Source of the DNA: Escherichia coli
GTDB taxonomy: Bacteria > Pseudomonadota > Gammaproteobacteria > Enterobacterales > Enterobacteriaceae
DNA: 64,000 bases
Direction: 5' to 3' (one strand)
Assembly: GCF_051903065.1 (NCBI RefSeq)
Contig: NZ_CP178438.1
Below the pieces are notes generated by a model. It made no database searches, was not told the DNA's origin, and worked only from the letters and a program-made list of their open reading frames with translations. Within the stretch, counting starts at the first letter, position 1, and every line of letters begins with the position of its first letter. This document shows, piece after piece, positions 61,605-63,603 of this stretch. Both the position numbers and the translations under genes were made by a program.

Positions 61605-62581
61605 TGGCGACCTCCGCGTAACAACAAAAGCAGGAAAAACGGTGCGCCAACAAAAGCGGTCAGAATGCCAAGTGGGATTTCTGTTGTTCCAATGCTGCGT
61701 GCCAGCGTATCGGTAAGCAGGAGCAGAATCGCGCCAGTACACATTGCCATGGGCAACAGCTGCTGATGGTTATGACCGGTCAACAAGCGGGCAATGTGCG
61801 GAACGACCAGGCCGACCCAACCAATTATGCCCGCTATTGCTACCGTACTGGCGGTGATTAGTGTGGCGCAGACAATCAATCCAAAGCGCAGACGCGTCAC
61901 GTTCAGTCCCAGCGAACGGGCTTCGTCGTCGGAAAGCGTGAGTAAATTCATGCGCCAGCGGAGAAAAAACAGGGGCAAGGAGCCAATGAGAATGATCGGT
62001 GCAGCATAGCAGAGATCGCGTAAGGTCACGGTGGACAGTCCCCCCAGCAACCAGAAGGTAATTGACGGTAACTGGGTGTAAGGATCGGCCAGCGTTTTAA
62101 TTAGCGATATCCCCGCTCCGCACAACGTTCCTAACGCAATGCCTACCAGCACCAGGGTTAAGATCGGATCGTGGCGGGTCACCCGACGCGTAATCAACCA
62201 GACGCCCGCGACCACCATCAGCCCGCCGCAAAATGCGTACAGCTGGATGTAAACAATGGATAATCCCCACAGAATTGCCATGCAGGCACCAAGTCCGGCA
62301 CCGGCGGAGACGCCTAAAATATCCGGTGAAACTAAGGGATTACGCAACATTCCCTGATAGGTGGTTCCGGCTCCTGCCAGCGCCGCGCCCAGTAACAGCG
62401 CAGCAAGAATACGCGGCACGCGGATTTGCCAGAAGACAATTTGTTCCTGCACAGGAACATTTTCTTGACGAAGAATTAGCGCCAGCAGTTGCTGCATATC
62501 GAGATGATAAGCCCCACTTACGGCGGCAAAAGTGATACTGATAGCTGCCAGCAGCAAAATACATCCGTTTACGATTCTCAT
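61601..62581 (-). CDS. ABC transporter permease, FecCD/BtuC family
   Basis: 326-aa polytopic ORF; its ATG overlaps the stop of the binding-protein gene (TAATG). Confidence 0.85.
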   Translation of the reverse strand: MRIVNGCILLLAAISITFAAVSGAYHLDMQQLLALILRQENVPVQEQIVFWQIRVPRILAALLLGAALAGAGTTYQGMLRNPLVSPDILGVSAGAGLGACMAILWGLSIVYIQLYAFCGGLMVVAGVWLITRRVTRHDPILTLVLVGIALGTLCGAGISLIKTLADPYTQLPSITFWLLGGLSTVTLRDLCYAAPIILIGSLPLFFLRWRMNLLTLSDDEARSLGLNVTRLRFGLIVCATLITASTVAIAGIIGWVGLVVPHIARLLTGHNHQQLLPMAMCTGAILLLLTDTLARSIGTTEIPLGILTAFVGAPFFLLLLLRGGRQ

Positions 62582-63603
62582 TAGCTTGCCACCAATTTTT
62601 GATAGTCGGCGTCACTGAGTGAACAATGCCAGAACAGTTGGGCGTAATGCTGCATGTCACTTTTAAACTGGCGATTGATGGCGGGGTCCAGCCAGGCGTG
62701 AAGTCTGCGTAATCCCAGAAGACGGTTGATTCCCGGCGGGGCATCCAGCCAGCCAAAGGGCAAGCCACTTAAAAATAAGATGCGTTGTTCCGCAACGGCT
62801 TTCACGCCCTGCCAGAGAGGATCACGACGAATAAAATCTGCAGTAACGGCCTCCTGAACCAGAATAATATCCGGCTGCCAGCGCAGGAGATTTTCCATGG
62901 AAACCTGTGTCAGGCCGTGGCGATCGGCGATTTGCGCGACGTTGTGCAAACCTAATAATTCCGCCGCCTCGGTATGCAACGAACCCTTTAAGCCCGTTTC
63001 CAGCCCTCGAGGACCGCGCGCAGCATAAAAGCGGAGGTTAGCGGCGGGTGAGGTGGCGAATGCCTGAGCTTCAGCAACGAAGCGGCTGGCGAGATTGGCT
63101 TGTTCTGCGGCGCGATGCTCTTCGCCTAACGTTTTGCCAAGCGTTGTTAACTGTTCTGCTGATTGCGCCAGTTTCCCGTTAAGCAATAACCAGGGTATTT
63201 GTGTCTGTTCGCTAACCTGCCGTGCCTGGGAGATCCAGGTTTCATCCGTATTGCCGCAATCAACGACCAAATCGGGATGTAACGCCATAAGCCCTTCCAG
63301 CGAGAGTGTGCTGGCGCGCCCGGCGAGTCGTCCCAGCCTGGGTAACTGGCGAATGTGCTCTGGCAATGGAATTAATGCCTGACGGGCAAAATCAAAAGAG
63401 GAAAAACCGACCATTTTTTCTGGCGCGACAGCCAGCAATAGCAAATCGGCGGGCGCACCTGCGCTGACGATGCGTGTAATGTTTTGGGCTTCGGGAAGCG
63501 TCAGTGAGGCCCAGAATTTGACTGATTGTGCAAAAGAAGGCAGATGATGCAGGAACAACGTCGACGCAAGAATCTGTGTAAACCTCCGTCTGGTTAGTGA
63601 CAT
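62581..63603 (-). CDS. Periplasmic substrate-binding protein (iron-siderophore/cobalamin-type) with Tat-like signal peptide
   Basis: 340-aa ORF; N-terminus MSLTRRRFTQILASTLFLHHLPSFA contains a twin-arginine motif; first gene of the operon. Confidence 0.8.
   Translation of the reverse strand: MSLTRRRFTQILASTLFLHHLPSFAQSVKFWASLTLPEAQNITRIVSAGAPADLLLLAVAPEKMVGFSSFDFARQALIPLPEHIRQLPRLGRLAGRASTLSLEGLMALHPDLVVDCGNTDETWISQARQVSEQTQIPWLLLNGKLAQSAEQLTTLGKTLGEEHRAAEQANLASRFVAEAQAFATSPAANLRFYAARGPRGLETGLKGSLHTEAAELLGLHNVAQIADRHGLTQVSMENLLRWQPDIILVQEAVTADFIRRDPLWQGVKAVAEQRILFLSGLPFGWLDAPPGINRLLGLRRLHAWLDPAINRQFKSDMQHYAQLFWHCSLSDADYQKLVAS

Follow-up and report, generated by a model that had tools for sequence, protein, structure and literature searches.

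A probable twin-arginine signal peptide on the substrate-binding protein of an Escherichia coli uptake operon with a ModE operator

How does the substrate-binding protein (SBP) encoded at the head of an uptake operon in Escherichia coli reach the periplasm, and does its route tell us anything about the molecule it carries? The question is raised by its N-terminus, which resembles a twin-arginine (Tat) signal, and by its gene neighbours, among them a ModD-like enzyme and a methyltransferase (MT). Our preferred reading, to which we give a probability of roughly 0.7, is that residues 1-25 are a genuine Tat signal peptide, that the SBP would be delivered to the periplasm empty, and that the operon is probably repressed by ModE in response to molybdate. 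By the window we mean the whole stretch of DNA that was analysed, 64 kb in length.

The operon and its first gene

The features of the locus are collected in Table 1. The genes are tightly packed: the permease ATG shares 1 nt with the stop codon of the SBP gene, and yc73 overlaps modD by 4 nt. The nearest solved structures to ModD are quinolinate phosphoribosyltransferases. The operon is the known prrA-modD-yc73-fepC island of uropathogenic E. coli (UPEC) CFT073, which corresponds to ECs1693-1699 of O157 Sakai (S-loop 83 / OI-55) and sits between ymgE and treA. The SBP gene is the unnamed 'putative transport protein' of that island (ORFs ECs1698-1699), and RefSeq labels it 'iron ABC transporter substrate-binding protein'. 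Of 5426 complete E. coli genomes, 2139 (about 39%) carry the whole island; K-12 lacks it, while published accounts place it in UPEC and APEC strains and in O157 lineages. PMC1890555 cites an earlier, original description from CFT073, probably that of Rasko et al. (2001). Published accounts call it 'proposed' or 'possibly' iron uptake, and we found no mention in them of a Tat signal or of ModE. Literature searches by locus tag, or by prrA together with CFT073, returned nothing useful. A TatP list of 25 substrates from the ExPEC strain PCN033, which may itself lack the island, does not include the SBP.

Table 1. Features of the operon and its upstream region, with positions in the 64 kb window
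Feature	Positions	Strand	Details	Basis
ModE operator palindrome, perfect	63628..63651	.	gene-sense CGATATATA-TGTAAA-TATATAGCG; 25-48 nt upstream of the SBP start codon	
Shine-Dalgarno AGGA	63612..63615	-	8 nt before the SBP ATG	read from sequence
SBP gene	62581..63603	-	340 aa; class III / cluster A SBP, Pfam Peripla_BP_2	ORF translation, profile match, RefSeq
Signal peptide (predicted)	63529..63603	-	residues 1-25, MSLTRRRFTQILASTLFLHHLPSFA; then Q	sequence
Twin-arginine motif T4-R5-R6-R7-F8-T9-Q10	63574..63594	-	fits S/T-R-R-x-F-L-K consensus	
FecCD-family permease (type II ABC importer)	61601..62581	-	NCBIfam BtuC/FecD-like, E 1e-69	RefSeq
ABC ATPase ('fepC' of the island)	60846..61604	-	RefSeq start; longest ORF reaches 61742	
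Class I SAM-dependent methyltransferase ('yc73')	60024..60836	-	only weak, generic methyltransferase matches	
ModD, quinolinate phosphoribosyltransferase paralogue	59173..60027	-	TIGR01334 modD 505 bits, cut-off 179	
TonB-dependent outer-membrane receptor ('prrA')	57177..59168	-	receptor-family matches; RefSeq start 59147	

Any argument about the signal depends on the start codon. The SBP reading frame runs on the minus strand from ATG (63603-63601) to TAA (62583-62581) and begins with MSLTRRRFTQILASTLFLHHLPSFAQSV; RefSeq gives the identical start and length. An in-frame TAA lies two codons upstream of the ATG, which is preceded by the AGGA. The next methionine is residue 64, and the only other in-frame start codon before it is a TTG at Leu16, use of which would lose the signal peptide. 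We consider this start secure on the sequence and alternative starts implausible. A true start downstream of the three arginines, which the first-pass annotation had named as grounds for refutation, is thus not indicated. It is hardly credible that the start is mis-called and the arginines belong to an untranslated leader or to another reading of the gene. JGI calls of two Citrobacter orthologues (P0053, P0055) do begin at a methionine in the x position of the motif and so drop the arginine pair, but x is arginine in E. coli and offers no start-capable methionine. Removing residues 1-25 would furthermore leave a periplasmic binding protein without a signal, and the signal peptide is kept at the amino-acid level among SBP orthologues.

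The family of the protein is clear. A profile search matches PF01497 (E 4e-17), and the AlphaFold model (pLDDT 89) has a long helix (residues 162-183), like the one that joins the two lobes of class III binding proteins, to which all top PDB matches belong. The nearest is 4PAG, an ABC solute-binding protein of Sulfurospirillum deleyianum (phmmer E 2.7e-26, 26% identity, TM 0.77-0.81), followed by MolA (3psa). 4PAG is uninformative on the ligand because it is a structural-genomics entry whose title names no function.

A Tat-type signal and its possible use of Sec

The N-terminus had been described as an RRxF motif followed by a hydrophobic stretch and an AxA-like cleavage region, and our analysis bears this out. 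At +3/+4 the motif has T and Q where the consensus has L-K, and the glutamine is shared with SufI. It fits the TatP default pattern RR.[FGAVML][LITMVF] (PMC1182353), which by itself also matches 7% of Gram-negative Sec signals (PMC1182353), so a single pattern match is weak evidence. After the motif come 21 residues free of D, E, K and R. Signal peptidase I is predicted to cut after Ala25 (S-F-A/Q), where the -3/-1 rule is obeyed and a lipobox cysteine is absent, and the A/Q junction is kept in orthologues. In the model, residues 5-19 form a helix, the pLDDT drops below 50 at residues 22-25, and the folded domain begins at about residue 29.

The physical character of the signal is more telling than the pattern. 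Its best 10-residue Kyte-Doolittle window scores 1.48, within the range of 24 E. coli Tat signals (1.40-2.44, 1.84 +/- 0.28) and below every member of a hand-compiled reference set of 18 Sec signals (1.92-3.09, 2.58 +/- 0.30); it thus has the lower hydrophobicity that sets Tat signals apart from Sec signals. As far as this comparison reaches, the second refuting outcome named in the first-pass annotation, a Sec-type signal, is not indicated either. The hydrophobic region is rich in Leu and Phe rather than in Gly and Ala, and at 25 residues the signal is short next to the 26-53 residues of the E. coli Tat set. Its c-region, LHHLPSFA, has a His-His pair and no Lys or Arg. A basic c-region is frequent in Tat signals, not obligatory, and its absence here makes some engagement of Sec possible. 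Neither Pfam TAT_signal (PF10518) nor TIGR01409 matched the full SBP or its first 30-40 residues at E up to 10. In control runs TIGR01409 recovered the signals of TorA, SufI, EfeB and NapA with 18-28 bits and missed FhuD. The negative TIGR01409 result is therefore weak evidence for a protein of this class.

Conservation adds to this picture. The arginine pair is present in essentially all full-length orthologues with at least 50% identity (about 100), and in an alignment that reaches down to 34% identity the conservation of both R5 and R6 is still at least 90%. At the level of species it is found in 49 of 80 loci, including every typable Enterobacterales locus (L016 to L046, 50-70% identity) except those of Morganella. 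Across orthologues all six arginine codons are used at each position of the pair and the x position is free to vary. Together with the weakly hydrophobic region, this codon usage around a conserved pair argues that the motif is beyond chance. The motif also goes along with Tat-like hydrophobicity, since RR-type orthologue signals score 1.92 +/- 0.36 against 2.73 +/- 0.30 for non-RR signals (Mann-Whitney p = 5e-7, uncorrected for phylogeny). A basic c-region residue is a Sec-avoidance feature (PMC5539426), and Citrobacter orthologues have an extra c-region arginine (LLLRHLPAFA); basic c-regions of Citrobacter and Enterobacter include PGQKSRAA.

Could the protein nevertheless be exported mainly or partly by Sec, either with a Sec signal that carries paired arginines by chance or with a promiscuous signal serving both pathways? 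We consider this unlikely, although several observations favour it. A pair of arginines does not bar a signal from Sec, and more than half of the E. coli Tat signals that were tested engage Sec when given a Sec-compatible passenger (PMC5539426). The mature SBP would be such a passenger: orthologues in the same cluster carry classical Sec-type signals, so it can evidently pass Sec unfolded. The shortness of the signal, its uncharged c-region, the silence of both profiles and the 7% of Sec signals that match the TatP pattern all point the same way. On the other side, its hydrophobicity lies below not only the 18 Sec signals but also all 17 non-RR orthologue signals (2.15-3.46). A strict arginine pair encoded by six different codons would be unexpected if lysine were an equal substitute, as it is in the n-regions of Sec signals. 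Moreover, loss of the pair among orthologues coincides with the gain of MKK and of a strongly hydrophobic core, which suggests that there are two separate types of signal and no continuum between them.

We therefore favour Tat. Under the Tat reading, the T-R-R-R-F of the precursor would probably be recognised by TatBC and the protein exported folded through the E. coli Tat translocase. Signal peptidase I would then cut after S-F-A25 and leave an empty class III binding protein in the periplasm, which may take its cargo from the TonB-dependent receptor PrrA and hand it to the FecCD-type ABC importer. Both the Tat dependence and the cleavage site are what we infer from sequence.

Two E. coli proteins provide the closest parallels. 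FhuD, which is listed among the Tat substrates of E. coli and Salmonella, shares with the SBP the PF01497 family, the class III fold and a setting with a TonB-dependent receptor and a FecCD-type ABC importer. Its signal is also similar, with three arginines (SRRRLLT) and a hydrophobic region rich in Leu. However, the two proteins are only distantly related, and the NCBIfam matches of the SBP include no FhuD model. FhuD binds hydroxamate siderophores and is controlled by iron, in contrast to the regulatory sites of the SBP locus described below. SufI (FtsP; MSLSRRQFIQ) has a nearly identical n-region (MSLSRRQFIQAS vs MSLTRRRFTQILAS), again with Gln for the consensus Lys, in a signal of 27 residues cleaved after A-x-A. 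Its hydrophobic region is Gly/Ala-rich, its c-region contains a lysine and it scores 24.8 bits with TIGR01409, whereas the SBP signal has Leu, Phe and His in their place and gives no score.

Signal type and the neighbouring enzymes

Tat export of a binding protein had been called uncommon in the first-pass annotation. This does not hold for the family: by a rule of our own, Tat-like N-termini are found in 32 (about 29%) of the 111 nearest full-length representatives at 50% identity, so Tat is not rare here, and FhuD is an accepted Tat substrate of the same Pfam family.

It had also been proposed that Tat is used because the SBP folds around or binds a molecule in the cytoplasm, in connection with the action of ModD and the methyltransferase. 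There are grounds for such an idea. Loading of cofactors in the cytoplasm is described for many E. coli Tat substrates (PMC3712460). The linkage between the SBP, MT and ModD genes is likewise real, the genes being overlapping or closely spaced within one operon and conserved across Enterobacterales, although this is independent of Tat. The orthologues, however, make the proposal very improbable. Sec-type signals are found in six Haemophilus loci that contain modD (MKKW...), in two Morganella loci with the full MT-ModD-TonB-dependent receptor set, and in Necropsobacter and Cricetibacter loci with the MT and the receptor. These orthologues belong to the same conserved cluster and are preceded by the same operator. 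RR-type signals, in turn, are also found where both MT and ModD are missing, for example at L070 and L080-L082. The Sec-type relative P0140 has neither enzyme in its context and is uninformative here. Since Sec-type signals are found in modD-containing clusters, Tat routing is not tied to ModD or the MT and does not imply loading of a ligand in the cytoplasm. An uptake SBP must in any case arrive in the periplasm empty to function. Cofactor-free Tat substrates are well established (FhuD, AmiA, AmiC, SufI, MdoD), and nothing in the model or family of the SBP points to a prosthetic group.

What remains of the first interpretation is a Tat-type signal on the SBP of an ABC/TonB uptake operon; its rarity, the cytoplasmic binding and a connection of the signal with ModD and the MT find no support. 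The type of signal is uninformative as to whether the two enzymes act on the cargo, an idea that rests on operon linkage only. Tat routing would rather be a lineage-level trait of the signal peptide, as it is for FhuD in E. coli, and would most likely reflect the folding behaviour of the SBP or a need to avoid Sec. On this reading the SBP is a probable new member of the E. coli Tat repertoire and, after FhuD, probably the second class III binding protein that travels by Tat. The natural swaps between Tat and Sec among its orthologues offer material for studying why certain binding proteins take the Tat route.

The ModE operator and the probable cargo

ModE is a molybdate-responsive repressor. 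The palindrome upstream of the SBP gene conforms to the E. coli ModE consensus ATCGnTATATA-N6-TATATAnCGAT (PMC545781) with a perfect core, and it is the sole match with at most 2 mismatches in the 64 kb window, where 0.01 would be expected. The position of the operator is conserved in orthologous loci across Gammaproteobacteria. A ModE-type site stands at the SBP start in 47 of 80 loci, compared with 29 sites in 1.31 Mb of other sequence, almost all of them upstream of the cluster's own TonB-dependent receptor gene. From the sequence we conclude that the operon is probably under ModE control. By contrast, a search of the whole window for the Fur box GATAATGATAATCATTATC gave no match even when 3 mismatches were allowed, and the best Fur-box-like match upstream of the SBP agrees at only 13 of 19 positions. 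As the search found nothing convincing, regulation by iron is unsupported.

Because the operon appears to be repressed by ModE and molybdate, a molybdenum or tungsten (Mo/W) species, whether oxyanion or chelate, is a likelier cargo than an iron siderophore. Among characterised binding proteins MolA (HI_1472) comes closest in both sequence and fold, although the relation is distant: phmmer gives E 2.6e-8 over residues 189-287 with about 21% identity, and Foldseek ranks MolA third for the model (E 2.7e-15, TM 0.67-0.69). In H. influenzae modD adjoins molABC (HI1469-1475), and molB is repressed by molybdate. MolA and the SBP share the class III fold, a type II importer as partner, linkage to modD and a molybdate-linked regulation, in the SBP's case the putative ModE control. 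There are also differences. MolA orthologues carry a Sec-type signal (MKFNRLFAAALFGIFSTSALA), and MolBC-A is not known to have a TonB-dependent receptor or a methyltransferase. In Haemophilus the SBP orthologue and molABC are two separate systems that flank modD.

The cluster thus probably serves the molybdate-repressed acquisition of Mo/W, with the cargo suggested by its regulation. A fuller account is more tentative, and we would put it at somewhat less than even odds. It holds that the iron-annotated island is really a ModE-repressed, TonB-dependent Mo/W system in which PrrA and a Tat-exported, MolA-like SBP scavenge Mo/W, possibly as a chelate ('molybdophore'), and in which ModD and the methyltransferase process or release the cargo in the cytoplasm. 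We consider the operator a finding of greater weight than the Tat signal, as it places a textbook ModE site, no Fur box, a linked modD and an SBP nearest to MolA in a virulence-associated 'iron' cluster. If the fuller account is true, the island needs re-annotation. It would also give a handle on the function of ModD, whose role has to our knowledge long been unknown, and on TonB-dependent Mo/W uptake in Gram-negative bacteria; in enteric pathogens we know of no energised Mo/W uptake across the outer membrane that has been characterised.

Two further observations concern the upstream region. Because the permease and the ATPase are similar to BtuCD and corrinoid systems, we scanned the region upstream of the operon for a cobalamin or other riboswitch with Rfam, and the scan was empty. 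A sigma-70 scan did not resolve the operon promoter. Read by eye, a TTGACA that is no more than suggestive precedes the left half-site of the operator by 17-19 nt.

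Start codon and twin-arginine motif of the binding protein

The substrate-binding protein (SBP) of the uptake operon is a class III (cluster A) protein (PF01497, E 4e-17), for which RefSeq gives the identical CDS and start under the name 'iron ABC transporter substrate-binding protein'. Translation of the minus-strand ORF gives the N-terminus MSLTRRRFTQILASTLFLHHLPSFAQSVKF. Judged from the DNA, we consider the start codon secure, because a stop codon stands in frame two codons upstream, an AGGA lies 8 nt upstream and there are few alternative starts; a TTG at Leu16 is the one further codon ahead of Met64 that could serve as a start in this frame. 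A start downstream of the RRR is very unlikely, given the same stop and AGGA and the lack of a Met at the x position of the motif. Two JGI gene calls for Citrobacter orthologues begin at a Met in this position, which is Arg in E. coli. In the AlphaFold model (mean pLDDT 89) an N-terminal helix spans residues 5-19, residues 22-25 are disordered and the folded domain begins at about residue 29.

The first-pass annotation described an RRxF motif, a hydrophobic stretch and a cleavage region, and all three are present. The motif T4-R5-R6-R7-F8-T9-Q10 (consensus S/T-R-R-x-F-L-K) matches the TatP default pattern RR.[FGAVML][LITMVF] and precedes a run of 21 residues that contains no D, E, K or R, after which comes S-F-A|Q; a lipobox is absent. 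A lone motif match is little proof, since by its authors' account the TatP pattern by itself matches 7% of Gram-negative Sec signals (PMC1182353) and Sec tolerates paired arginines (PMC5539426). Both facts favour the alternative that the signal is used by Sec, or by both pathways, and we therefore examined conservation, physico-chemistry and an orthologue control.

The motif [S/T/N/H]-R-R-x-[F/L] is kept in all full-length orthologues of at least 50% identity, save one Shewanella KKR variant, and the signal peptide outside it drifts. This set comprises about 100 clusters at 90% identity from Escherichia, Citrobacter, Salmonella, Klebsiella, Enterobacter, Serratia, Yersinia and Shewanella. R5 and R6 are the only columns of the signal region that are at least 90% conserved in a 23-sequence alignment reaching down to 34% identity. 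All six Arg codons (AGA, AGG, CGN) occur at both positions and the x position holds R, T, M, L, Q, K, H, S, A, V, D or N, which argues for selection on the amino acid rather than insufficient divergence.

The best 10-residue Kyte-Doolittle window of the signal is 1.48. The corresponding values are 1.84 +/- 0.28 (range 1.40-2.44) for 24 E. coli Tat signals from a table in PMC7549933, and 2.58 +/- 0.30 (range 1.92-3.09) for a set of 18 classical E. coli Sec signals. Among the orthologues, RR-type signals average 1.92 +/- 0.36 and the non-RR signals, which mostly start MKK, 2.73 +/- 0.30 (Mann-Whitney p 5e-7, uncorrected for phylogeny). The arginine pair and low hydrophobicity thus switch together, as two distinct targeting designs would. 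This switch, the amino-acid-level conservation and a window below the Sec range all speak against Sec or dual use, which we regard as unlikely. Other features point towards it: the signal is short (25 aa), searches with the Pfam TAT_signal and TIGR01409 profiles left it unscored, and its c-region has no basic residue, an optional Tat feature (Citrobacter orthologues have LLLRHLPAFA). TIGR01409 gives the TorA, SufI, EfeB and NapA signals 18-28 bits but leaves FhuD unscored too. Motif, hydrophobicity and cleavage site are of Tat type, and c-region charge and profile score are not.

On balance we put the probability that SBP export is largely Tat-dependent at roughly 70%, so that the Tat-type signal proposed earlier is upheld as a prediction. 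It is probably an ordinary Tat signal in mechanism, on a new Tat-signal protein. The nearest n-region is that of SufI (MSLSRRQFIQ), and the nearest in protein class is E. coli FhuD, a class III binding protein with the signal SRRRLLT that is on standard lists of Tat substrates. The earlier remark that Tat export is uncommon for binding proteins holds for such proteins generally but not for this family, which includes FhuD; among the 111 nearest full-length representatives, 32 count as Tat-like (an RR pattern within the first 40 residues plus a minimum of 12 uncharged residues) and a lipobox occurs in 21.

Signal type and gene content across loci

We called ORFs in 80 loci of SBP relatives (L-numbers; one genome per species) and typed them by phmmer against the six window proteins. 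The signals are RR in 49, KKR in 2, Sec-type in 26 and disrupted or unclear in 3. Enterobacterales loci have the order SBP-permease-ATPase-methyltransferase (MT)-ModD-TonB-dependent receptor (TBDT) and RR signals. Sec-type signals are found in six Haemophilus clusters containing modD (MKKW...), in the full six-gene cluster of two Morganella psychrotolerans strains, and in Necropsobacter and Cricetibacter loci with MT and TBDT. Several beta- and gammaproteobacterial loci without MT and ModD have RR signals, and the modD-containing loci divide into 33 RR-type and 8 Sec-type. These lineages presumably possess Tat systems.

Both routes are thus open to the mature protein, and the type of signal says nothing about ModD and MT. 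This contradicts the earlier suggestions that Tat export implies folding or binding in the cytoplasm and that the signal marks ModD and MT as acting on the cargo. FhuD, AmiA, AmiC, SufI and MdoD are Tat substrates without a cofactor, so Tat use needs none, and an uptake binding protein must in any case reach the periplasm empty.

In both Morganella assemblies the SBP gene is interrupted at an identical place and reads as two overlapping ORFs, with MT, ModD and TBDT intact; this may be either a frameshift or a pseudogene. In the assemblies of L024 and L058 the signal peptide is absent or interrupted; P0126, a 50%-cluster representative of Shewanella marina type, has MIMDRRDFLAG. L026 (Shewanella morhuae) and L027 (S. 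glacialipiscicola) carry MDTKKRLLLKAL, in which KR stands in for the twin-arginine pair, and have MT and TBDT without modD; L025, L034, L042, L054 and L056 likewise lack modD and retain MT.

A predicted ModE operator and the likely cargo

The palindrome upstream of the SBP gene is a perfect ModE operator core, CGnTATATA-N6-TATATAnCG; the E. coli operator is ATCGnTATATA-N6-TATATAnCGAT (PMC545781). It is the sole match with at most 2 mismatches in 64 kb (expected 0.01), and most gammaproteobacterial loci have it at the same place. At this threshold a 400-nt zone at the start of the SBP gene holds a match in 47 of the 80 loci. The other 1.31 Mb contains only 29 matches, nearly all directly upstream of the cluster's own TBDT gene, in genera where TBDT forms a transcription unit of its own (Proteus, Providencia, Morganella, Acidovorax, Necropsobacter). 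A second ModE-type palindrome precedes TBDT where it lies apart from modD or upstream, in these genera and Pectobacterium. No Fur box was found for the operon, and no riboswitch upstream of the SBP gene.

From operator and context, our best reading is a ModE-repressed system acquiring Mo or W, as oxyanion or chelate. Independent pointers go the same way. In both sequence and fold, the characterised binding protein closest to the SBP is MolA (HI_1472), which binds molybdate/tungstate for the type II importer MolBC-A. In H. influenzae a 'secondary molybdenum transporter', molABC, adjoins modD, and molybdate represses molB. In our Haemophilus loci modD, which encodes a QPRTase-like protein, lies between the SBP-orthologue system and a second set resembling molABC. 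The Zymomonas nif cluster holds modD, modE and two TonB-dependent transporters, Methanosarcina has ModE motifs upstream of 'Fe ABC transporters', and at L004 a distant TBDT-SBP-ModD-FecCD cluster with an RR signal adjoins a formate dehydrogenase operon (Mo/W enzyme, FdhE).

In L060, L062, L064, L065 and L069 (Haemophilus spp.) both importers are type II; the first, the window-system orthologue, comprises a divergent TBDT, SBP, permease and ATPase, and the second SBP-permease-ATPase set, with the Sec-type signal MKFNRLFAAALFGIFSTSALA, is probably molABC (HI1470-72).

The island and its distribution

Between ymgE and treA, the six genes follow one another closely or overlap. Of 5426 complete E. 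coli genomes, 2139 carry the whole island, and 6.8 kb of the window is 100% identical to several complete genomes. It corresponds to the published prrA-modD-yc73-fepC cluster of UPEC CFT073 and to ECs1693-1699 (S-loop 83 / OI-55) of O157 Sakai, and has been termed 'proposed' or 'possibly' iron uptake (PMC1890555; PMC12928451). That a virulence-associated island taken for iron uptake carries a ModE operator adds value beyond the Tat signal, and would add considerably more if verified by experiment. Neither Tat signal nor ModE control is mentioned in the papers found by a partial literature search, and an earlier description is possible.

Coordinates of features in the window and in loci of SBP relatives
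Feature	Position	Strand	Remarks
SBP ORF	62581-63603	minus	sole ORF at interval; ATG 63603-63601 to TAA 62583-62581; 340 aa
Predicted ModE operator	63628-63651		25-48 nt upstream of SBP ATG; CGATATATA-TGTAAA-TATATAGCG
ATPase gene, longest ORF	60846-61742		GTG start, 298 aa; overlaps permease gene by ~140 nt
Second ModE-type palindromes	L029 13548; L031 6077; L035 13541; L036 13570; L057 13572; L075 13455; L085 5240, 5318		others also present
SBP, Citrobacter braakii ATCC 51113	L024 8911-9912		stop-to-stop ORF opens few residues before mature domain
SBP, Shewanella marina	L058 8956-9918		as L024
SBP, Morganella psychrotolerans	L075 8848-9908; L086 8740-9908		split gene
Distant homologous cluster	L004 1-5463
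Formate dehydrogenase operon	L004 5917-11215
FUR-family gene	L003 14858-15373

RefSeq places the ATPase start near 61604 (252 aa), so that the overlap with the permease gene has the usual short length. At L003, an enterobacterial locus with a 46% identical SBP and the six genes in the same order, the cluster adjoins a FUR-family gene, then lexA, dgkA and plsB, the zur position in E. coli; the island thus lies at different chromosomal sites in different genera. L008 (JAIJJM010000486.1), a 2.5 kb contig labelled as a Collinsella sp. MAG, matches the E. coli gene at 97% identity, ModE box included; its place in an actinobacterial metagenome bin is almost certainly due to contamination during binning.
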